A program made the translations under genes and the position numbers. The notes below the pieces were generated by a model. The model was not told the origin of the DNA, searched no databases, and worked only from the letters and a program-made list of their open reading frames with translations. This document shows positions 2,227 through 11,886 of a stretch of 11,886 nt of DNA, piece by piece (within the stretch, counting starts at the first letter, position 1; every line of letters begins with the position of its first letter). The stretch is from a virus. The stretch is from UHGV virus genome UHGV-2004451; one strand, given 5' to 3'.

Positions 2227-3003
2227 ATGTCTTCGCATACTTACGACAATCCCGCCTATATCGCTTCGTGCTCGTTCGGCAAGGATTCGATCGCTACGAT
2301 CCTCCTTGCCCTCGAGCACGGCGAGCCGCTCGATGCCGCCGTCTTCTCGGAGGTGATGTTCGACCACTGGCGCAATATCAGCGGCGAGATACCCGAACAC
2401 ATCGAGTGGATCTACTCGACGGCTATTCCGCGTCTTGCAGCCTTGGGCGTACGGGTCGATGTCGTCCGTTCGGAGAAAGACTATCTTACGTTATTCCATA
2501 CGGTCATAGGGAGCGGTACGCATAAGGGTATGCTGCGCGGCTGGCTCATCGGCGGCAAGTGCTGCGCCAACCGCGACCTCAAAATCCGGCCCATACATCA
2601 TTATTACGGTCGTTTCCGCAAGCAGGGCGTCGTGCAGTACGTCGGCATCGCGGCCGACGAACCGAGACGCCTCGCGCGGATGCAGGACAAAGGGTATATC
2701 CGTAAAACAAGTCTGCTCGCCAAGTACGGGTACACCGAGGCGGATGCCCGACGCAAGTGCGAAGAATACGGTCTGCTGTCGCCTCTCTACCGAACCTCGC
2801 ATCGGGGCGGTTGCTGGTTCTGCCCCAACTGCCGCATACCGGTCTTCGCCGAACTGCGCCGCCGACATCCCGAACTGTGGCGCGAACTGCAACGGCTTTC
2901 GAAGGTCGGAAATAAGTCATCCGAAGGCTTCAAATACGGGCAGACTTTCGAGGAGATCGAGCGGAGGATGGATCTCTTCGAACACGCGCCGACGCTATTC
3001 TAA
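2227..3003 (+). CDS. PAPS-reductase / DndC-like PP-loop ATP pyrophosphatase family protein (putative nucleotide or DNA modification enzyme)
   Basis: N-terminal PP-loop-like motif SCSFGKDS (SxGxDS type) and a C-terminal cysteine cluster CWFCPNC. The ATG at 2227 lies 1 nt after the TGA of the upstream methyltransferase (TGAtATG), implying translational coupling. An in-frame ATG at 2176 would overlap the upstream gene by 50 nt and is considered less likely. Confidence 0.7.
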   Translation: MSSHTYDNPAYIASCSFGKDSIATILLALEHGEPLDAAVFSEVMFDHWRNISGEIPEHIEWIYSTAIPRLAALGVRVDVVRSEKDYLTLFHTVIGSGTHKGMLRGWLIGGKCCANRDLKIRPIHHYYGRFRKQGVVQYVGIAADEPRRLARMQDKGYIRKTSLLAKYGYTEADARRKCEEYGLLSPLYRTSHRGGCWFCPNCRIPVFAELRRRHPELWRELQRLSKVGNKSSEGFKYGQTFEEIERRMDLFEHAPTLF

Positions 3004-3007
3004 ATAA

Positions 3008-3090
3008 CTGAAAATAAATATGATAATAGTTGCCGGATAACTTGCGTGTTCCGAATAACGATGTTATGTTTGCAGTACGATAAACAACTG
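3008..3090 (+). promoter_or_regulatory. Promoter repeat copy 1 (Bacteroidota-type -33 TTG / -7 TATGTTTG)
   Basis: An ~82-bp AT-rich element about 95% identical to copy 4. TTG at 3042-3044, a 20-nt spacer, and TATGTTTG at 3065-3072 match the TTTG-N19-21-TAnnTTTG consensus of Bacteroidota primary promoters. The leader contains GATAAACAACTG. It lies directly upstream of gene 3118..3540. Confidence 0.6.
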
Positions 3091-3117
3091 AATAATAAAC
3101 GATTAAAACACCCGAAC

Positions 3118-3540
3118 ATGACAAGTGCACAGGCAAAACAGATCGCATCGAACTATATGCGGCAGCAGAGCGATTACGTATTTTCGGCGGTAACGGTTAA
3201 AAGCCTCGCTCCGGCGAACGGACCAGTTAAGGTGTGGCTCACCACCGAAGACGACTACGGGGACGAACTGATCGTCGAGGTCGAGATGGACCCGCAGTCG
3301 AATGAGATCCGCTGGAAGAAGATCTGCAACACGGGACGCCTATCCGAATATCTGAAGCCGGCTACTCGGATCGATAAACTTTCGGCAGGACAACGCTTCC
3401 GGCTGCAAGGCGACTGCGTGGTTTACGAGTTCGTGGACAATGTAAAGGACCGCAGCAGTATTCCCTATATCATCCGACGGGCGGACCGGTCCGGTTGCGT
3501 ATCGAGAGTCGGATGGCAGGAAGTTTTTCCTATCGAGTAA
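3118..3540 (+). CDS. Hypothetical small protein (141 aa), first gene behind promoter repeat copy 1
   Basis: The ORF track gives 3046..3540, but its GTG start lies inside the promoter repeat (-7 box at 3065-3072). The first ATG downstream of the predicted transcription start is 3118. Balanced amino-acid composition; stop TAA at 3538-3540 is followed by a hairpin at 3550-3576. No recognisable motif. Confidence 0.6.
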   Translation: MTSAQAKQIASNYMRQQSDYVFSAVTVKSLAPANGPVKVWLTTEDDYGDELIVEVEMDPQSNEIRWKKICNTGRLSEYLKPATRIDKLSAGQRFRLQGDCVVYEFVDNVKDRSSIPYIIRRADRSGCVSRVGWQEVFPIE

Positions 3541-3549
3541 CCGATAACC

Positions 3550-3576
3550 GCGCACCTTGCCGAAAGGCAGGTGCGC
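3550..3576 (+). terminator. Stem-loop downstream of gene 3118..3540 (possible terminator or RNA processing site)
   Basis: GCGCACCTTGCC-GAAA-GGCAGGTGCGC: an 11-bp GC-rich stem with one bulged base and a GAAA tetraloop. No U-tract follows, so intrinsic-terminator function is uncertain. Confidence 0.4.
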
Positions 3577-3589
3577 ATAAAACGATACG

Positions 3590-3808
3590 ATGATGAAACT
3601 CCGCCGAACAAAAACCGGAACTTACACGATTGCGGGTATTACCGCAACTCAATATCGCGCCCTTGCGGCTGTGCTTACTACCGCCGATGGGCGTTGCTTC
3701 GACGAGCAGGACGGGGACGGCAACTATTACAGCAACGACGATTTCGTCTGCTCGCTCGATGGCGATGAACGCGAGGCATTGCGACAGGTGTGCGACGCGC
3801 TTCGATAA
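3590..3808 (+). CDS. Hypothetical small acidic protein (72 aa)
   Basis: ATG at 3590, 14 nt after the 3550-3576 hairpin. The C-terminal half is Asp/Glu-rich (DEQDGDGNYYSNDDFVCSLDGDERE). The competing frame 3571..3768 is Arg-rich and looks like a shadow ORF. Stop TAA at 3806-3808 lies just before promoter repeat copy 2. Confidence 0.45.
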   Translation: MMKLRRTKTGTYTIAGITATQYRALAAVLTTADGRCFDEQDGDGNYYSNDDFVCSLDGDEREALRQVCDALR

Positions 3809-3819
3809 CGTGTAAGATA

Positions 3820-3901
3820 TTGAAAATAAATGCGATAATAATTGCAGAAAGACTTGCGTGTCCCGAATTATGATGCCATCTTTGCAGCGTGATAAACAAC
3901 T
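3820..3901 (+). promoter_or_regulatory. Promoter repeat copy 2 (degenerate -7 box CATCTTTG)
   Basis: Same element with several substitutions. TTG at 3854-3856, 20-nt spacer, CATCTTTG at 3877-3884, then GATAAACAACT at 3891-3901. Directly upstream of gene 3917..4249. Confidence 0.5.
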
Positions 3902-3916
3902 AATATAGAGCGTATT

Positions 3917-4249
3917 ATGAGTACAAAAGCAAGAATCGGAGTAAGACTTCCCGACGGAAAAATCAAAAGCATCCATATATGGCGGGACGGACATCCCGAT
4001 ACGTTGGGCGAAATGTTGTCTGCGCACTACAATACATTGGAATCGGCAATGGCACTGGTCGAACGAGGCAACATAATCGATGTGGAGGCACGTCTCGAAG
4101 AGTGCCGGTTCGAGAAATCGAATGAACGGTGCGAAACCGAGCCTCGGATTTATAAAACGGTCGCCGCCTACGAACGAGAAATCGAGGAGGATATATGTTA
4201 CAAATATCTCTATCGGGACGGCAAGTGGGAATACCGGGCGGTCGATTAG
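3917..4249 (+). CDS. Hypothetical small protein (110 aa), behind promoter repeat copy 2
   Basis: ATG at 3917, about 25 nt downstream of the predicted transcription start of promoter copy 2. Protein-like composition with a Glu-rich C-terminus. Followed by a structured 3' region containing hairpins at 4285-4302 and 4337-4367. Confidence 0.65.
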   Translation: MSTKARIGVRLPDGKIKSIHIWRDGHPDTLGEMLSAHYNTLESAMALVERGNIIDVEARLEECRFEKSNERCETEPRIYKTVAAYEREIEEDICYKYLYRDGKWEYRAVD

Positions 4250-4284
4250 TAACCGACTTCCGATCGTAAGGAGCGAATGCTCCG

Positions 4285-4304
4285 AGCCTCCGACGGGAGG
4301 CTTT
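4285..4304 (+). terminator. Hairpin plus short T-run in the 3' region of gene 3917..4249
   Basis: AGCCTCC-GACG-GGAGGCT (perfect 7-bp stem) followed by TT. It is preceded by a second small hairpin GGAGC-GAAT-GCTCC at 4270-4283. Confidence 0.35.
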
Positions 4305-4316
4305 CCCTCGTTTCGT

Positions 4317-4397
4317 CCATTCAGTTGTTTATTGCGACCGGAGCCGTGCATCGTGTACGGCTCCGGTTTTCGTTCGAAGGCGGGACATTGTTTCTGC
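4317..4397 (+). repeat. Conserved structured 3' element, copy A
   Basis: CCATTCAGTTGTTTATTGCG, then the CCGGAGCCG/CGGCTCCGG hairpin with a loop containing CATCNTGT, then GGGACATTGTTTCTGC. Shares flank, stem core, loop motif and downstream motif with copy B. Confidence 0.6.
4337..4370 (+). terminator. Intrinsic-terminator-like hairpin (core of conserved 3' element copy A)
   Basis: ACCGGAGCCGT-GCATCGTGT-ACGGCTCCGGT: a perfect 11-bp stem followed by TTTT. Confidence 0.55.
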
Positions 4398-4469
4398 AAC
4401 GGATCTTCGGCAGCATGTATATTTACCATATGGGATATGCTTGATAAATAGTTGATATTCTTTGAATTA

Positions 4470-4533
4470 AGTTGTCGATAAACTTGCGCGTCCCGAATAA
4501 TGATGTTATGTTTGCAGTGCAACAAACAATTGA
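4470..4533 (+). promoter_or_regulatory. Promoter repeat copy 3 (core only; upstream part divergent)
   Basis: TTG at 4484-4486, 20-nt spacer, TATGTTTG at 4507-4514, with the conserved core CTTGCGCGTCCCGAATAATGATGTTATGTTTGCAGTGC. The leader motif is altered to CAACAAACAATTG. Upstream of gene 4560..4778. Confidence 0.55.
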
Positions 4534-4559
4534 ACTACAATCTATTAAACGACTCGATC

Positions 4560-4778
4560 ATGAATACTGCGAATCGAAAAAGAACGGAGATCGACGCCGA
4601 ACTCGACCGGTTGGAGGTCGAATTCGAAAAGAACCGTAAGGAGATGCAAGGCCTTGCCGACGAGAACAGACGTGCCGGCAACCGCTACGGCGAATTATCG
4701 AATGCGAATCACGACATCAACAACCGGATCCTCACATTGCTCGCTGAGCGTTGGGAATCGGAAGAGACGGCTGATTGA
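4560..4778 (+). CDS. Hypothetical small coiled-coil protein (72 aa), behind promoter repeat copy 3
   Basis: The ORF track gives 4500..4778, but that start lies inside promoter copy 3 (-7 box at 4507-4514). The first ATG in the leader is 4560. The sequence is charged with heptad-like spacing (EIDAELDRLEVEFEKNRKEMQGLADENRR). Stop TGA at 4776-4778 is followed by a GC-rich hairpin. Confidence 0.55.
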   Translation: MNTANRKRTEIDAELDRLEVEFEKNRKEMQGLADENRRAGNRYGELSNANHDINNRILTLLAERWESEETAD

Positions 4779-4791
4779 CGAAACGAGAGAC

Positions 4792-4824
4792 GACCCCGCC
4801 GAGAAACCGTCTTCGGGGCGGGGT
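4792..4824 (+). terminator. GC-rich hairpin downstream of gene 4560..4778
   Basis: ACCCCGCC...GGCGGGGT: an 8-bp G+C stem with a 16-nt loop that can partly pair (GAA/TTC), followed by TT. It begins 14 nt after the stop codon. Confidence 0.45.
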
Positions 4825-4855
4825 TAAGACCCGAAACAGGAGAACACATAAAGAG

Positions 4856-5053
4856 ATGAAAACGATGAATGCAAATGCAACGGTAGGCGACAAGATTCGC
4901 ATTATCCATCTTCGCGACGAGGACAGCCGTTACGACGGCAAGGAGGGTACGATCGAGTTCATCGACTCGCTCGGACAACTGCACGGCACGTGGGGTGGCT
5001 TGGCAGTCATTCCCGAAGTCGATCGGTTCGTAATTATCGAGAAACCGGAATAA
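4856..5053 (+). CDS. Hypothetical small protein (66 aa), beta-rich, reminiscent of small DUF-type domains common in phages and mobile elements
   Basis: The ORF track gives 4775..5053, starting at a TTG that overlaps the upstream hairpin. The first ATG after the hairpin is 4856. The motif GDKIRIIHLRDEDSRYDGKEGTIEFIDSLGQLHGTWGGLAVIPEVDRFVI looks like a small SH3/KOW-like beta domain. That assignment comes from memory only and is not verified. Confidence 0.5.
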   Translation: MKTMNANATVGDKIRIIHLRDEDSRYDGKEGTIEFIDSLGQLHGTWGGLAVIPEVDRFVIIEKPE

Positions 5054-5074
5054 TCGCCGGCAACGATAATGCTC

Positions 5075-5096
5075 GGTTCCGCCATCTTTTCGGAAC
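5075..5096 (+). terminator. Weak hairpin downstream of gene 4856..5053
   Basis: GGTTCCG-CCATCTTTT-CGGAAC: a 6-bp stem with a U-rich loop, lying between the stop codon and promoter repeat copy 4. Confidence 0.3.
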
Positions 5097-5106
5097 ACCT
5101 AATTTA

Positions 5107-5188
5107 CTGAAAATAAATACGATAATAGTCGCCGAACAACTTGCGTGTTCCGAATAACGATGTTATGTTTGCAGTACGATAAACAACT
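5107..5188 (+). promoter_or_regulatory. Promoter repeat copy 4 (near-identical to copy 1)
   Basis: TTG at 5141-5143, 20-nt spacer, TATGTTTG at 5164-5171, leader GATAAACAACT at 5178-5188. About 4 mismatches to copy 1 over 82 bp. Directly upstream of gene 5204..5491. Confidence 0.6.
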
Positions 5189-5203
5189 AAAAAAGAGCGA
5201 ATT

Positions 5204-5491
5204 ATGAGAACGAACATCGAACGGTTTTTAGAGAGATTCCCGAAGAATGCCACGAATTGGGCGCAGGCGACGGACGAGGTGCGCGACATGGCTCGCAAGG
5301 CTCGCGAATTGTTGGAAGAGTACGAAGGCGTCATCGTCGAACCGGTAAATTTCCGGGCTATCGAGACCCCGGCCGAGTGGAATACCGAAGGTCGCGAGTT
5401 CATCCTGACGAATTTCGATCGCATGGCGGATAGGACCAAAGAGCGCTTCTACGACTACTTCCGCGAGTGGTTCGAAGGCGAAGAGGAATAG
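5204..5491 (+). CDS. Hypothetical small protein (95 aa) with acidic C-terminus, behind promoter repeat copy 4
   Basis: ATG at 5204, about 25 nt downstream of the predicted transcription start of promoter copy 4. C-terminus is FREWFEGEEE. Stop TAG at 5489-5491 is followed by a perfect 14-bp hairpin at 5500-5536. Confidence 0.65.
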   Translation: MRTNIERFLERFPKNATNWAQATDEVRDMARKARELLEEYEGVIVEPVNFRAIETPAEWNTEGREFILTNFDRMADRTKERFYDYFREWFEGEEE

Positions 5492-5499
5492 ACCGACGC

Positions 5500-5536
5500 A
5501 CGGATGCTCCCCGCAGCTCGAACGGGGAGCATCCGT
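5500..5536 (+). terminator. Strong hairpin downstream of gene 5204..5491
   Basis: ACGGATGCTCCCCG-CAGCTCGAA-CGGGGAGCATCCGT: a perfect 14-bp stem beginning 9 nt after the stop codon. No U-tract follows. Confidence 0.5.
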
Positions 5537-5594
5537 CCTAACCCCGGAGTAGGGTTGCACACGTCGTCTCTTTCGATAGGAAATCTATCGTGCT

Positions 5595-5672
5595 CCATCA
5601 GTTGTTTATTGCAGCCGGAGCCGCATCATGTGCGGCTCCGGCAATCTCATTATAGAGGGACTTTGTTTCAGC
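5595..5672 (+). repeat. Conserved structured 3' element, copy B
   Basis: CCATCAGTTGTTTATTGCA, then the same hairpin core, then GGGACTTTGTTTCAGC. About 85% identical to copy A with a structure-preserving substitution in the stem. Confidence 0.6.
5614..5642 (+). terminator. Hairpin (core of conserved 3' element copy B)
   Basis: GCCGGAGCCGCA-TCATG-TGCGGCTCCGGC: a perfect 12-bp stem. Homologous to the 4337-4367 hairpin, with a compensatory T-A to C-G change at the loop-proximal pair. Confidence 0.5.
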
Positions 5673-5716
5673 GATGAGGCCTTTTGCCATTTTACCTTTA
5701 TTCCCGCGACAAAGGT

Positions 5717-8581
5717 ATGGCGATTTTCGGTCTAAAATATTACGCTGAACTTCGCTCGAAGTACAAGGGCGTTTTGTGGCGCGTGGAGATTTCGGAGCGG
5801 GGGTACGCAGGTCCGTCGGAGGAGATGGCCTTCGACGGCGGTACGCCGTTGCAGATTACGTGGGAGAAACGGGGCGACGAGTTCTACGTGCCGGTCAAGG
5901 CTTCGGAGGCGACCATCAATATCCTCTGCAAGGAGAATTTCCATTACCTGGCTCTGTTCACCTCCGATCCCCGTTATTTTCGCGTCTCGATTTTCCGCAA
6001 TCGGCAGCTCTATTGGCGGGGCTACGTCACCTCCGACCTCTACTCCGAGAACTTCACCGCTCCGCCCTATACCGTTACGATCAAGGCCGTGGACGGCTTC
6101 AACCTCTTGTCGAGCATTCCGTTCCGCGACCTCGTACATATCGGCATCGCGGGCAGGCGGTCGCTATGGGAACTGCTCTCCTCCTGCATCGACTTGTTGG
6201 AGTTGGATCTCGATACGGCGGACTGGATGGATCTGTATGTCGAGGGCATGGACGAGAACGCCTCTTCGCTCCGTCAAACCTATATCGACCTCGAACGGCT
6301 CTACTACGTCTACGAGGAGCCTACCTATCGCGACATCCTCGAACTGTGCCTGCGTCCGTTCGCCGGACAGATCTTCCAGTCGAACGGTGCCCTGCATATC
6401 CGCCGCGCCGTATCGCTCTACCGAACTGCCCGTCCCGTGAATTTCTATCGCGTCGGCACGGAGCATCCCGTCGGGCGGATCGTTACGGGCAGCGGACTGC
6501 GGCTCGTGATCCATACCGGTGCGCAGGTCGTCACATCGGCTGCACGCGAGCGCATCGACGGCATGTGGACGGGCGACCTGCACATCGAGGGAAGTTCGAC
6601 GCTCGACATCGTCCCTGCGCTGCGCAAGGTCTCGGTCGATGTAAAGAACAAGAGCCTCGACAACCTGATCGCCCGCATCGGGTTCTACGATCCCGACGCT
6701 TGGACGGATCCGCACGGCTTCGTCTCCGTGAAGAGCGGAGAGGAACTCTATTTCAGCGGCGAGGATGCCTATCGGGGTGCGGAAGTCGTAACTCGGGGCT
6801 TTCCCGTCGAGCAGTGCAACTTCCCGCTCGTATGGGAGTTCGGGTTGCAGACCTACCATCGGGAGTGGGGACTGGGCATTTACCGCCCGAACGAAAGCGT
6901 CGATGTCGCGGTGCATTACGGCGTCCGCATCGTCGGCGAAAAGGCGACATACAGCCTCGCCGAGAGCGGTTCGTGGGTGCAGTCCTCCGACGGGGAGATC
7001 GCGAGTACGGTCAAGACCGGCAACGAGCAGAACATGAAGATCGAGATCGACGGCATCCCCTGCGACGGCGAGTGGCGGTTCTTCGTCCGGCAGACGCTCA
7101 TCGGCAAGATCACGACCTATACCGACCGCTTCGGCAATCCGAGCGGCCGCACTTCGGGCTATATGGAGAGCGCCGCGTTCCGCAAGATGACGCTCTCGAT
7201 CGATGCGGGCGACAGCTACGACAAGGGTTTGCGCTACGAGTCGCTCGTCGATCCCGCGAACAATGTCGATATGTCCGTAACGCTTCCCGTGAGCGATATT
7301 CCCGCCATTCCGAACGACCGGCTGCTCTATGCGCTCTACTACCTCGATGCCGCCGGCAATCCCACGCGCATCTGGCATACGAAAGGTCGGAACGACTACG
7401 ACACGCTGGTCGGTCATATCGTGCAGGGAGCATTGCGGTACAAGCAGCTGCCGAGCCGGCGCATCACGGGCGAGATCTTCACGGGGCAGCATATCGATAT
7501 GAATACGGTGGTTCGGGACGACAAGTTCCTGAACGCCGCCTATTACCTGAACTCCATCGAACTGAATGCCCTCGACGACTCCTACAACAGCGAACTCACG
7601 GAGATGCCGCGCCTGCTCGCAACGGAGAGACCGCCGGAGGGCGACGACTGCATAGCGGTCGCGACGCTCTCCTTCACGGTCGGCAAGGCGATCCGCTGCC
7701 TGAACCGTCTGCTGCTCCAGTCCGTCGATAAAAAGACGGTCTATGCCTTCGACACCGCCACGCGGCAGGTACGGGAGATCTACCGCAGCACGGCATCCTT
7801 CGAGATGTACGAGGCGGACGAGGGTTTCGTCGCGGTGGACGGGAAAGGGGTCCGCTACCTCGACTATCGCGGTACGGTCGAACGGATATATACCCCGCCG
7901 GAGGAGTACCGCAACGTCGCGACCTACATGGACGGATATATCCATATCCTGAAATCCTACCGGCAATATATCGGTCCGCGGGGCGGCGATGCCGGCGGAC
8001 GCAGCGCCCGCACGGCAGAGGACGAGGATCCGAACTATCGCACCTATCGTTACCTCTCGCGCCCGGAGTGCAAGTACATTTCGCCCGATGCCTCGACCGG
8101 ATATCGCGGACGGGGATATGCCTACGAGGGTACGCCGATGTCGGGTGCGATCCTCGCCCTGCGGCGTACGGAAAATACGATCGTCGTGAATACCTCGCAT
8201 GGCGCCTATCTGCACGACAAGCGGTTCCACCAGCCCTGTAAGATGCTGCAATTCGCTGCGGGCGAGCAGATCGTCACCGTCTCCGACAACTATATCGGCA
8301 TCAACGCCGACGATATGCTGTGGTTCTATCGGCGGGATTCGATTACCGAGCGGACGCTGCTCCGGCGGTTGGGACGCTGGGCGGATCACGCCGACCATAC
8401 GATGAGCGAGGTCGTACACTCCTACGACGACGGCATCTTCATCCGGAACTTCCGCGACGACACGACGACCGACGTTCGGAACGCCGCCGGCTGGGGCGAG
8501 AACATCATGGGGCTGTTTTTCATCTGCGGCGACCTCTATATCGTGCGCGAACGGGCGATTTACAAATACATTCCTGAATAA
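5717..8581 (+). CDS. Large hypothetical protein (954 aa from the first ATG; 965 aa if the TTG at 5684 is used); possibly a virion or tail-associated structural protein
   Basis: This is the only one of three overlapping long ORFs with protein-like composition (aromatic-rich, balanced). The overlapping 5776..7731(+) frame is Arg/Gly-rich and 6164..8854(-) is Ser/Arg-rich, both typical shadow ORFs of GC-rich coding DNA. No Walker A or other catalytic motif was seen. The gene lies in the same + strand block as the tape measure gene. The function call is inference only. Confidence 0.75.
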   Translation: MAIFGLKYYAELRSKYKGVLWRVEISERGYAGPSEEMAFDGGTPLQITWEKRGDEFYVPVKASEATINILCKENFHYLALFTSDPRYFRVSIFRNRQLYWRGYVTSDLYSENFTAPPYTVTIKAVDGFNLLSSIPFRDLVHIGIAGRRSLWELLSSCIDLLELDLDTADWMDLYVEGMDENASSLRQTYIDLERLYYVYEEPTYRDILELCLRPFAGQIFQSNGALHIRRAVSLYRTARPVNFYRVGTEHPVGRIVTGSGLRLVIHTGAQVVTSAARERIDGMWTGDLHIEGSSTLDIVPALRKVSVDVKNKSLDNLIARIGFYDPDAWTDPHGFVSVKSGEELYFSGEDAYRGAEVVTRGFPVEQCNFPLVWEFGLQTYHREWGLGIYRPNESVDVAVHYGVRIVGEKATYSLAESGSWVQSSDGEIASTVKTGNEQNMKIEIDGIPCDGEWRFFVRQTLIGKITTYTDRFGNPSGRTSGYMESAAFRKMTLSIDAGDSYDKGLRYESLVDPANNVDMSVTLPVSDIPAIPNDRLLYALYYLDAAGNPTRIWHTKGRNDYDTLVGHIVQGALRYKQLPSRRITGEIFTGQHIDMNTVVRDDKFLNAAYYLNSIELNALDDSYNSELTEMPRLLATERPPEGDDCIAVATLSFTVGKAIRCLNRLLLQSVDKKTVYAFDTATRQVREIYRSTASFEMYEADEGFVAVDGKGVRYLDYRGTVERIYTPPEEYRNVATYMDGYIHILKSYRQYIGPRGGDAGGRSARTAEDEDPNYRTYRYLSRPECKYISPDASTGYRGRGYAYEGTPMSGAILALRRTENTIVVNTSHGAYLHDKRFHQPCKMLQFAAGEQIVTVSDNYIGINADDMLWFYRRDSITERTLLRRLGRWADHADHTMSEVVHSYDDGIFIRNFRDDTTTDVRNAAGWGENIMGLFFICGDLYIVRERAIYKYIPE

Positions 8582-9099: not shown

Positions 9100-9522
9100 A
9101 TGAACGAGAAAACTTTGCCGAGAGGGATGCGCAATCGTAATCCCGGCAATATCCGCCGGTCGGCGACGAAGTATCTGGGCGAAGTTGCGCCCTCGCGCGA
9201 TGCCGCATTCAAGCAGTTCGAGACGATGGCGTGGGGCTACCGCGCGATGTTCGTGCTGCTGGACTCCTACTCCCGCAAGGGCTACCGGACAATCCGGCAG
9301 ATGATCTCGCGCTACGCTCCGCCCATCGAGAACCATACCGAAAACTATATCCGTTGTGTGGCCGAATGGTCGGGTATCGGCGCCGACGAGCCGGTCGATA
9401 CGCAGGCGGGCGAGACGATGATTCCTATCGTGGCGGCTATGTCGCAGGTGGAAAACGGGCAACCGGCGGTACTATCGGACGTCGAGGCGGGCTGGACGCT
9501 CTATCTGCAACACAAACCCTAA
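9100..9522 (+). CDS. Hypothetical protein (140 aa) immediately upstream of the tape measure gene
   Basis: ATG at 9100; stop TAA at 9520-9522 lies only 6 nt before the tape measure start. Protein-like composition with the N-terminal motif RNRNPGNIR. Function not recognised. Confidence 0.65.
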   Translation: MNEKTLPRGMRNRNPGNIRRSATKYLGEVAPSRDAAFKQFETMAWGYRAMFVLLDSYSRKGYRTIRQMISRYAPPIENHTENYIRCVAEWSGIGADEPVDTQAGETMIPIVAAMSQVENGQPAVLSDVEAGWTLYLQHKP

Positions 9523-9528
9523 ACAGCC

Positions 9529-11886
9529 ATGTCCCGGAGAATCGCCGATTTACTTATAAAGATCGGAGCCGACTCGTATGAGTTCCAACAGAAGGCGCAA
9601 CAGGTCGAGAAAGGACTCGGCTCGCTCGAAAAGAAGCTGACCTCCGTCGGCAAGTCGCTCTCGCTGAAGCTCACCGCACCCCTTGCTGCATTGGGCGGCG
9701 TGTCGCTGCACCTGGCCGATGTGCAGGCCAAAGCCGAGGCGAAGGTGCAGCAGGCGCTCAAGGTTACGAATCAGGCCGTCGGTTACAACTTCCGGCAGTT
9801 GGCCGACTACGCTTCGGAGTTGCAGGGCAAGACACTCTTCGGCGACGAGACGATCCTCGACAAATCCACCGCCCGCCTGTTGGCTTTTACTAACATCACG
9901 GGCGAGAACTTCAAGCGTACGCAGGCGTTGGCATTGGACCTCGCCACGGCGTTGGAGATGGATTTGGGTTCGGCGTCGTTGCAGTTGGGCAAGGCGCTCT
10001 CCGATCCCGCGACGAAGCTCTCGTCGCTGTCGCGTGCCGGTATCGCCTTTTCCAAGGAGCAGACGGAGGTAATCAAGAAGCTCGCCGAGACGGGCGACAT
10101 AGCCAAAGCGCAGGCGATGATCCTCGACGAGTTGGAGCGCAAGTTCGGCGGGCAGGCCGAAGCCGCCGCACGGACGGGACTCGGCACCGTGCAGCAGCTC
10201 AAGAATGCGTGGGGCGACTTCCTCGAACGGATCGGTGCGGCCATCATGCCTTTCGCGACGAAGATAGCGGGTGCGCTCTCGACGGTCGTGCAGATGCTGC
10301 AATCGATGTCGCCGGCGATGATGCAGACGATCGTCGTCGTGGCGGGGCTGGTGGCTGCGATCGGTCCCCTTTCGCTCGGAATCGGCGCCGTGATCAAGGT
10401 GCTGCCGATGCTGGCGGCGGGATTTACGGCTCTGTTGTCGCCCGTCGGATTGATTATGGCGGCGGTCCTCGCGCTCGGTGCGGCATTCGCCTACGCCCGC
10501 CTCCAGAAGCAGAAGATGATCGACGAGATGGCCGAAACCGAATCGCTCGACGAGCTCGAACGCAAGTTGCAGGAGAATATCGCCGAGCAGAAAGAGATCA
10601 TCGCCACGACGACCAAGACGCGGATGGTTCCGAATTTCGGTGGATTGGTCGCCGGATTTATCTTGCAGAAAGTCCCCGACGAATCGAAACTCGCACCCCT
10701 GCGCAAGGAGTACGATCTGCTGACGGCAGCGATCGAAAAGAAACGCGAAACGGAGAAGAAGGCGGCCGAGGCGCAGGCCGAACTGGACAAGGTAACGGAC
10801 GAGGCTCGCAAGCAAACCGAGGAGTTGATGAAGTCCATCGCCGGAACCAACGCGCAGACGGAGCAGAGCACGGGCATCATCGGTAAATTGCAGGCGCGGA
10901 TCGAGGCCCTCGAAAAGAAGAAACTGCTGCCCGAATCGACCGTCGAGGATATCGCTGCGGCGAATGCCGAGATCGGGAAGCTACAAAAAGAGCTGGAGCG
11001 GATCCGAAATATCAAGCCCGAAGACCTGAAGCCCGTCGTCAAGATGGACGGTATTCTGCCCGCGGGCTTCGAGTTGGAACTGCCGGCTCCGAAACTCAAA
11101 ATGGGCGATCTGAAACCCGTAACATCGCAATATGCGCAGCAGATGCAGGCGATATTCGGTGCGGTGCGCGAAGGGCTTTACGGCTGGGCGGACGACAACA
11201 GCGCATACTTGCAAAATAACCTCGCCGATACGGTCTCGATGGTCGAGAACTACACGACAGCGCTGACGGCGAAGGGCTGGTCGTTCTCGGCGGCATTGGA
11301 GCATGTCCACGCCACGATTGCGGAGGTGATGACACGCTTCGATCAGCAGGTGTCGAAGTTTATGGCCGACAGCATCGTCGCTGCGGCGGAGGCTATCGGG
11401 CAGATCATCGCCGGCGATTTGGGATTCGGAGGGCTGATGAAAGCGATTCTGACGCAGTTCGCCAATTTTCTGAAAAATATCGGCTCGCAGCTCATCGAGT
11501 TCGGCGTGATGATCATCGCCTTCAAATCGGCGTTGAGATCCGTCCTCGCTAACCCGTGGGCGGCGATCGCCATCGGTGCAGCAATGGTCGCGGCAGCAGC
11601 CGTGATGACGGCGCTCATCAACAAGAATGCGCAGGAGAGCGTGCCGGCATTGGCCAACGGCGGTCTGGTATACGGTCCTACCTATGCGATGGTCGGCGAC
11701 AATCCCAATGCCGGTACGGATCCCGAAGTCATCGCTCCGCTGTCGAAGTTGCAGGCGATGCTCCCGACAGGCGGCAGCGCGCAGAACCTACGAATAACCC
11801 TCGGCGGTCAATTGACTGCCAAGGGTCGGGATTTGGTGTATGTTCTCGGAAAAGAGAACTTCAAGTCAGAGGTGCTGGGTGGGTGA
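9529..11886 (+). CDS. Phage tail tape measure protein (785 aa)
   Basis: The N-terminal region matches the conserved tape measure core signature as I recall it (LGKALSDPATKLSSLSRAGIAFSKEQTEVIKKLAETGDIAKAQAMILDELERKFGGQAEAA). It is followed by long Gly/Ala-rich hydrophobic segments (IMPFATKIAGALSTVV...GLVAAIGPLSLGIGAV and AIAIGAAMVAAAAVMTALI) and an extended Glu/Lys-rich coiled-coil region. Stop TGA at 11884-11886 coincides with the window end. Minus-strand and off-frame ORFs inside it are GC-shadow artefacts. Confidence 0.85.
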   Translation: MSRRIADLLIKIGADSYEFQQKAQQVEKGLGSLEKKLTSVGKSLSLKLTAPLAALGGVSLHLADVQAKAEAKVQQALKVTNQAVGYNFRQLADYASELQGKTLFGDETILDKSTARLLAFTNITGENFKRTQALALDLATALEMDLGSASLQLGKALSDPATKLSSLSRAGIAFSKEQTEVIKKLAETGDIAKAQAMILDELERKFGGQAEAAARTGLGTVQQLKNAWGDFLERIGAAIMPFATKIAGALSTVVQMLQSMSPAMMQTIVVVAGLVAAIGPLSLGIGAVIKVLPMLAAGFTALLSPVGLIMAAVLALGAAFAYARLQKQKMIDEMAETESLDELERKLQENIAEQKEIIATTTKTRMVPNFGGLVAGFILQKVPDESKLAPLRKEYDLLTAAIEKKRETEKKAAEAQAELDKVTDEARKQTEELMKSIAGTNAQTEQSTGIIGKLQARIEALEKKKLLPESTVEDIAAANAEIGKLQKELERIRNIKPEDLKPVVKMDGILPAGFELELPAPKLKMGDLKPVTSQYAQQMQAIFGAVREGLYGWADDNSAYLQNNLADTVSMVENYTTALTAKGWSFSAALEHVHATIAEVMTRFDQQVSKFMADSIVAAAEAIGQIIAGDLGFGGLMKAILTQFANFLKNIGSQLIEFGVMIIAFKSALRSVLANPWAAIAIGAAMVAAAAVMTALINKNAQESVPALANGGLVYGPTYAMVGDNPNAGTDPEVIAPLSKLQAMLPTGGSAQNLRITLGGQLTAKGRDLVYVLGKENFKSEVLGG

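Follow-up and report, generated by a model that had tools for sequence, protein, structure and literature searches.

Two kinds of phage element are the closest described counterparts of the DNA considered here. One is the Rho-independent terminator of phage 'moron' cassettes. The other is the activator-dependent late promoter, in which a dyad replaces the -35 element (as in Mu C/Mor and P2 Ogr) with the geometry of class-II CRP/FNR sites. Within an 11,886-nucleotide (nt) stretch of virus genome UHGV-2004451 (the window), which is part of an Alistipes temperate siphophage, two related elements at 4317-4397 (copy A) and 5595-5672 (copy B) recall both. Each copy is probably a terminator hairpin (M1, comprising a flank and a hairpin) joined to a separate promoter/operator (M2, comprising a dyad box and a TA-box), and would act as transcriptional punctuation, with both parts of known kinds.

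Like the terminators of 'moron' cassettes, M1 is a GC stem-loop after a stop codon with a compensated stem and a free loop, and the two also share a U-rich tail in most contexts, a host-type promoter upstream, a position between tail genes, and presence/absence polymorphism. Ordinary terminators need no flank, whereas M1 has a 19-nt single-stranded one that is conserved above the neighbouring sequence; in addition, copy B in the window is without a good U-tract, and further conserved hairpins precede M1 in the 3' untranslated region (UTR). M2 resembles activator-dependent late promoters in its 13-bp dyad at a fixed 23 bp before a -10/-7-like box, in having no -33/-35 element, and in lying directly before virion genes. 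It differs from them in that its TAYYTTTAY deviates from the Bacteroidota -7 element TAnnTTTG and, compared with Mu/P2-type late promoters, in preceding only one operon (plus its occurrence in copy A) and not the head genes. The features of the locus that stand out are the complementarity between the flank and the leaders of nearby promoters, the rigid arrangement of dyad, 23 nt, and TA-box, and recurrent flips of hairpin loops.

Anatomy of the two copies

Both copies are present on the plus strand at the positions given by the initial annotation, which had described them as a repeat family, and they share the box motif GGGACWTTGTTTC. Their parts are as follows.

4317-4335, plus strand: flank of copy A, CCATTCAGTTGTTTATTGC, unpaired in every fold; its reverse complement is found in the leaders of the cassette promoters
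4336-4368, plus strand: hairpin of copy A (M1-A), 15 bp with loop UCG, about -28 kcal/mol, followed by UUUUCGUUCG
4382-4397, plus strand: dyad box of copy A (M2-A), GGGACATTGTTTCTGC, read as GGGAC-ATT-GTTTC(TGC)
4418-4426, plus strand: TA-box of copy A, TATATTTAC, exactly 23 nt past the 13-nt box
5595-5612, plus strand: flank of copy B, CCATCAGTTGTTTATTGC
5614-5642, plus strand: hairpin of copy B (M1-B), 13 bp with loop CAU, -28.5 kcal/mol
5657-5672, plus strand: dyad box of copy B (M2-B), GGGACTTTGTTTCAGC, read as GGGAC-TTT-GTTTC(AGC)
5693-5701, plus strand: TA-box of copy B, TACCTTTAT, 23 nt past the box and 15 nt ahead of the ATG at 5717

The TA-boxes are common to A and B and lie outside the elements as first delimited. 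Relative to dinucleotide shuffles, the hairpins have z-scores of -6.8 (A) and -7.4 (B), and the recurrence of the 14-mer flank CAGTTGTTTATTGC, like that of the 16-mer box, greatly exceeds what shuffles would give. By manual count, the copies agree at 18/18 positions of the flank (plus one indel), 9/9 of the stem core, 14/16 of the box, and 6/9 of the TA-box, whereas the spacers of 15 nt and 20 nt match at only 4/15 and 5/20 positions (25 to 27%, the random level). Since the spacers are equal in length and random in sequence, the pattern points to selection on the motifs and their spacing and not to recent duplication. The compensatory stem difference noted earlier is genuine, with U-A in copy A and C-G in copy B above the shared 9-bp core, and the base of the stem also differs (A-U versus G-C). 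The elements were rightly called noncoding, in that the open reading frames (ORFs) 4277-4444 and 5504-5677 traverse the motif in different frames. A coding explanation was rejected on that frame inconsistency of the spanning ORFs and on the minus-strand ATGs beside the flank, which open nonhomologous ORFs of 25 and 46 codons.

M1 and M2 in related prophages

M1 is most likely an intrinsic-type terminator or a 3'-end stem-loop that closes accessory-gene cassettes. Both hairpins lie on the coding strand, downstream of the stop codons of genes 3917-4249 and 5204-5491. The relatives compared were 22 IMG/VR and 17 genome loci that encode relatives (50 to 100% identity) of the 954-amino-acid (aa) virion structural protein of the window. 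Across the 11 bp that can be aligned in all M1 variants, pairing is kept in 94% of cells, and both partners differ at two pairs, in addition to the top pair (U-A or C-G); since the clade is shallow, this covariation evidence is modest. Variation takes the form of a C-G to U-A change in L150, a G-U pair with an unrelated 7-nt loop in L013, and a largely rebuilt stem in L160, and all three variants fold at -24 to -27 kcal/mol. U-rich tails follow the hairpin in copy A (UUUUCGUU), in L011 and L145 (UAUUUUAUUUUG), in L160 (AUUCUUUUAU), and in L150 (UAUCCUUUAUUG), and that of L013 is likewise U-rich.

In other relatives, the slot 8 to 15 nt before the box is taken by unrelated hairpins followed by T runs of 7 to 9, by TTTTCGTTT, or by TTTTGCTTT. 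Since this slot holds canonical terminators, M1 stands in terminator position. M1-B accompanies gene 5204-5491 in both genome arrangements found among these prophages, and it keeps with that gene when the downstream neighbour is a Zn-dependent alcohol dehydrogenase gene or other DNA. In the prophages with the other arrangement, the gene and M1 lie about 12 kb away in the opposite orientation, and M1 is followed by UAUUUUAUUUUG and then by the sigma-A promoter of the alcohol dehydrogenase gene; homology of the window to these prophages stops at the 3' edge of the M1-B hairpin (about 5641). A third right-hand context of M1-B was seen in L167 and L171.

The flank-plus-stem pattern, searched in IMG/VR and metagenomes, recovered only this prophage clade, and an IMG/VR scan with the 14-mer flank alone gave almost only chance matches. 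A covariance model of M1 run over 40 loci added weak antisense matches on promoter leaders and one diverged copy (40 bits), which lies directly after a homologue of gene 3590-3808, an upstream neighbour unlike that in the window:

4063-4125 of L160, minus strand: diverged copy A, with flank CCATTCAGTCGTTTATTGTG, a rebuilt hairpin, a U-rich tail, box GAGACGATGTTTC, 23 nt, and TACTTTATA

M2 consists of a dyad box, GGGAC-N3-GTYYC, exactly 23 nt before TAYYTTTAY. With a search that permitted spacers of 15 to 32 nt, it was found upstream of the virion-protein gene in 24/24 distinct sequences, always as the box, exactly 23 nt, and TACCTTTAY or TATCTTTAC; the distance from the TA-box to the start codon in these sequences was 15 to 21 nt (40 in one). 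Across relatives the box follows the pattern G[GAC]GAC-WWW-GTNYC, and in L154 it is a perfect palindrome, GGGACTTTGTCCC. M2 is present with or without M1, and its upstream neighbour can be the flank-hairpin, an integrase gene, an ORF6N gene, or unrelated DNA. The downstream motif that had been counted as part of the same RNA 3' element is instead half of M2, which is kept before the virion operon where the hairpin is absent or located elsewhere; because M2 is kept independently of M1, the motif belongs to the regulatory region of the next operon. The proposed conserved 3' element or terminator thus stands in its hairpin, which is structure-selected and most likely a terminator, and falls away in its loop motif, which is not constrained, and in its downstream motif, which belongs to M2.

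From its position and architecture, M2 would be a DNA-level regulated promoter/operator for the next unit, which in copy B is the virion operon. That operon needs a start signal of its own, since terminators precede M2 and M2 also follows integrase and ORF6N genes, and no conserved elements other than the box and the TA-box are available for this role. If the TA-box is taken as a -7 element, the centre of the dyad would fall near -41, where class-II activators bind, and we infer an activator-dependent geometry. In the mechanism that we propose, transcription of the cassettes would end at M1, keeping it out of the virion genes, and would restart under control at M2, where a regulator would bind the dyad.

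Several observations weigh against this combined reading of terminator and promoter. On the side of M1, the tail of copy B in the window is a poor U-tract (CAAUCUCAUUAUAG / CAAUCUCAUUAU), a simple terminator scan called neither hairpin, and the conserved 5' flank is not accounted for by a terminator model. On the side of M2, the final G of the sigma-A -7 consensus is missing from the TA-box, and neither a -33 element nor a TTG at the right distance is present, so that M2 is not a standard host promoter. The TA-box TACCTTTAY is, moreover, complementary to the RTAAAGGTA that abuts the start codon of the 954-aa protein in many relatives, a match that fits only if the box is transcribed; it spans 6 bp in the window (5693-5719) and reaches 9 to 11 bp in L156, L019, and L150, the arms being variably spaced, and the minus strand of the window at 5693-5719 reads TACCTTTG, a consensus -7 box. 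In 16 relatives, the 10 kb preceding the major head gene contained no M2-like motif, and no candidate activator was identified, although no search for an activator was made.

Other roles were considered for M2 and set aside. A 5'-UTR RNA element was not adopted, as RNAalifold gave no consensus structure from M2 to the start codon, and a general class of late promoters was rejected on the absence of M2 before the head genes of the 16 relatives. Sigma-54 or ECF spacing was rejected because, by eye, the required positions and spacings are not conserved.

If the terminator and promoter/operator reading is right, the elements are routine punctuation of phage gene expression with modest practical value. 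They could nevertheless be used as portable parts, terminators and regulated promoters, in Alistipes and other Bacteroidota, for which few such parts have been characterised, and they would mark the boundaries at which accessory cassettes and virion modules are shuffled among gut prophages. The rigid architecture of dyad, 23 bp, and TAYYTTTAY would further suggest that a widespread group of Alistipes prophages has a regulator controlling the expression of its virion genes.

Cassette promoters and alternative readings of the elements

Sigma-A promoters of Bacteroidota have the consensus -7 element TAnnTTTG and a -33 element TTTG/TTG about 19 to 21 nt upstream (PMC7366714). Four repeats in the window match this consensus and are thus predicted to be promoters of this type (P1 to P4).

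3001-3128, 3813-3940, 4470-4570, and 5100-5227, plus strand: four promoter repeats of about 100 nt, with TTG, 20 nt, and TATGTTTG or CATCTTTG
3077-3090, plus strand: P1 leader, ACGATAAACAACTG, starting 5 nt past the -7 box TATGTTTG (3065-3072), complementary to the flank
3889-3902, plus strand: P2 leader, GTGATAAACAACTA, complementary to the flank
4519-4532, plus strand: P3 leader, GCAACAAACAATTG, complementary to the flank
5176-5189, plus strand: P4 leader, ACGATAAACAACTA, complementary to the flank

The repeats fall into two alternating subtypes, P1/P3 and P2/P4, and the island looks like two tandem regulatory scaffolds with unrelated genes. The reverse complement of the flank forms the first 14 nt or so of all four leaders, after the -7 box plus 4 nt. 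It occurs in the window with 2 to 3 mismatches, at the same position in each of the four repeats and nowhere else, compared with shuffle expectations of 0.03 at ≤2 mismatches and 0.40 at ≤3. The leader consensus of relatives, GCAATAAACAACTR, matches the complement of the flank at 13 to 14 of 14 positions. In minimum-free-energy (MFE) folds of the four predicted mRNAs (477 to 1298 nt), the 5' end pairs with the flank over 12 to 16 bp, and the flank-leader duplexes have energies of -13.7 to -20.2 kcal/mol, versus -5 to -7 for shuffled flanks. The flank is also better conserved than its surroundings, matching at 18/20 positions in L160 (versus 11/16 for the box) and at 13/14 in L150, where the wider aligned region has 69% DNA identity and the neighbouring protein 58%. 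The link between flank and leader is therefore real, and it could reflect RNA pairing (in cis or by a 3'-UTR fragment), one DNA-binding protein for both sequences, or a relic. An integration host factor (IHF)-like site in the flank was rejected, as the required positions are, by eye, not conserved.

Pairing between the ends of an mRNA is known from Staphylococcus aureus icaR and Bacillus subtilis hbs, where the 5' and 3' UTRs pair, and some 3'-UTR small RNAs (sRNAs) carry their seed beside the terminator. The M1 flank resembles the icaR and hbs cases in that 12 to 16 nt of complementarity link a sequence just before the terminator to a 5' leader; it differs from them in that the link is here made by sequence and fold prediction with no covariation, and in that the target would be the extreme 5' end and not the ribosome-binding site. 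It is possible, though clearly less probable than the terminator and promoter/operator reading, with which it could coexist, that the flank CAGUUGUUUAUUGC, single-stranded beside the hairpin, pairs with the GCAAUAAACAACUG-like 5' leaders of the cassette mRNAs. In cis, such pairing would turn the mRNA into a panhandle with a buried 5' end and altered stability or translation; in trans, a processed fragment of about 50 nt (flank plus hairpin) would target all four leaders. Consistent with this are the excess of flank complements over shuffle expectation, the near-complete match in relatives, the start of the leader at about +1 (5 nt past the -7 box), the closing of the modelled mRNAs from 5' end to flank, and the conservation of the flank in L160 and L150. 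sRNAs derived from 3' UTRs are, furthermore, known in Bacteroides (PMC7366714).

However, neither L013 nor L160 shows covariation between flank and leader: a T-to-C change in L013 breaks a pair with its own P4 leader, and the changes in L160 are neutral overall. Because L004, L005, and L022 keep the leader without a complementary flank, conservation of the leader is independent of the flank, and because the four leaders are paralogous, their match to the flank counts as one event. The transcription start site at the leader is, in addition, an assumption, and any inverted repeat would give the same fold prediction. If pairing did act at the RNA level, it would be one of few instances in Bacteroidota of an mRNA whose 5' and 3' ends pair and would make the elements part of a prophage posttranscriptional circuit in a phylum that, to our knowledge, has no Hfq and no classical Shine-Dalgarno initiation.

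The same complementarity might instead arise at the DNA level, although this seems unlikely. One phage regulator would bind double-stranded CAGTYGTTTATYGY in either orientation, acting as a repressor at +1 to +14 of the four cassette promoters, and the sites before the hairpins would be auxiliary or looping sites near M2, with the TTGTTT-containing box as a possible further site. The 14-mer family has six occurrences within 2.7 kb and none elsewhere in the window or in the 22.8 kb of L002, its location at +1 is typical of a repressor site, and the relatives that have the leader but not the flank would fit a primary operator at the promoters. By our reading, the reverse complement of the box in this clade, GCAGAAACAATG, is also similar to the P3 leader GCAACAAACAATTG, but the boxes of relatives (GGGACAAAGTATCCC) are unlike the leader. 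The 14-mer itself is not dyad-symmetric, the window yielded no regulator gene, and the gap of 0 to 3 nt between flank and hairpin in every variant is not accounted for by a shared operator.

A further set of observations concerns the hairpin loops. The loop motif CATCNTGT, initially taken as conserved, is present in the window, but close relatives carry it inverted or have another sequence in its place. Three hairpins (at 4347-4357, 5625-5631, and 5514-5522) differ between genomes of more than 93% identity in that the loop, together with the upper stem, is exchanged for its reverse complement. Such flips affect copy A (in L006, L167, L176, and L280, compared with the window and L002), copy B (in L171), and the hairpin at 5500-5536 (in L002), and the core of the dyad box flips alike (AC-AAA-GT versus AC-TTT-GT). 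Minute hairpin-loop inversions are known from noncoding chloroplast DNA, and template switching is known at quasi-palindromes. Here as there, the loop and the top of the stem are reverse-complemented between near-identical genomes while the stem is kept; the difference is that the hairpins here belong to prophages and are terminator-like, and that 1.3 kb holds three of them. The flips suggest that template switching or events of the cruciform type have acted on the palindromes.

Larger rearrangements were seen as well. The virion-protein operon, from M2 to the DUF285/BspA-like gene, has opposite orientations with respect to the integrase gene in prophages of the tRNA-Lys type (L002) and the tRNA-Asp type (L145, L011, and L146), and in the latter the Zn-dependent alcohol dehydrogenase gene directly follows M1. 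That the palindromic hairpins are themselves a substrate for module exchange or inversion is nonetheless very improbable. The end of homology 0 to 7 nt past the M1-B hairpin, the three different right-hand contexts, the inversion of the operon, and the loop inversions would all fit such a site. Yet it is normal for phage mosaics to be joined at terminators and gene boundaries, for which no dedicated site is required, template switching explains the loop flips of small palindromes, and the genes seen include no invertase. Integrase, attachment tRNA, and cargo genes are also not the same in the two arrangements, which are therefore different mosaic phages and not two states of one; a programmed inversion site was rejected on this ground. 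An attachment site at the hairpin was likewise rejected, as the attachment sites are at tRNA genes and the prophages end at tRNA-Lys or tRNA-Asp beside the integrase.

Least probable of all is a free-standing structured noncoding RNA (ncRNA) or a nut/put-type RNA that modifies RNA polymerase to read into the late genes: the two copies of a linear motif plus hairpin in early-type units before structural genes are superficially like lambda nutL and nutR, and the weak U-tract of copy B makes read-through conceivable, but M1 has no promoter of its own, its loop is inverted or replaced in L006, L171, L013, L150, and L160, unlike boxB or put, its long GC stem is typical of terminators, unrelated canonical terminators substitute for it in relatives, the covariance-model search recovered this clade only, and an Rfam 15 covariance-model scan of the whole window (E = 1 or better) found nothing in 4250-5720. 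The small structured ncRNA offered as one option by the initial annotation found no support, given the lack of an Rfam match and of a promoter, and the confinement to one prophage clade. Elsewhere in the window, the same scan gave two chance-level matches, both subthreshold and inside coding sequence: IRES_Bip (19.8 bits) and MIR2629 (19.6 bits), at 9389-9447 and 11787-11829.

Cassette layout and neighbouring features

The window carries the following genes, all on the plus strand.

Window, plus strand: two DNA methyltransferases, a PAPS-reductase-like gene, small genes, the 954-aa virion structural protein, and lysozyme-like and tape-measure-like proteins
3917-4249, plus strand: accessory gene (110 aa, phrog_1987), transcript predicted to end at M1-A
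5204-5491, plus strand: accessory gene (95 aa), transcript predicted to end at M1-B
5717-8581, plus strand: gene of the 954-aa virion structural protein, first gene of the operon that M2 always precedes

The operon that starts with the 954-aa virion protein also includes the tape-measure-like gene, and gene 4856-5053 encodes DUF4314. The order along the window is P1, genes, P2, gene 3917-4249, copy A, P3, genes, P4, gene 5204-5491, copy B, and the virion operon; the genes upstream of copy A and copy B have no homology to each other. Close relatives are prophages of Alistipes genomes that adjoin tRNA-Lys or tRNA-Asp and a tyrosine integrase. A Megablast search with the window matched no GenBank phage, and tblastn with the 954-aa protein gave only distant structural proteins of Cellulophaga and Flavobacterium phages.

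In L002, a 95%-identical prophage, the accessory island sits between the major tail protein gene and the virion/tape-measure-like genes. A place between tail and virion/tape-measure genes is the classic position of a 'moron' cassette. The cassettes are variably present among relatives, as shown by cassette loss with a hybrid promoter in L171 and by the different neighbour in L160. In L171 (minus strand, about 4640 to 4700, compared with window 3854-4532), the upstream half of P2 is joined to the P3 leader, and gene 3917-4249 and copy A are missing; recombination between promoter repeats seems to have removed the cassette. With their own predicted promoter and terminator, their place among late genes, and their variable presence, the small accessory cassettes would be 'moron'-like. 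L011 also carries an AbiJ abortive-infection gene.

The 3' UTRs ahead of the two copies contain further hairpins, two before copy A (4250-4316) and three before copy B (5492-5594).

4270-4302, plus strand: two small 3'-UTR hairpins upstream of copy A, GGAGCgaatGCTCC and GAGCCTCCgacgGGAGGCT
5500-5536, plus strand: first 3'-UTR hairpin after gene 5204-5491, equivalent to a canonical U-tailed terminator of the L004 and L007 homologues

The hairpin at 5500-5536 shows compensatory changes in L013, the flipped loop in L002 mentioned above, and loss of the U-tract in the window. GC hairpins without T-tracts also occur inside the cassettes, after genes 4560-4778 and 3118-3540 (at 4795-4826 and 3553-3577, respectively), and may be internal attenuators or stabilisers.

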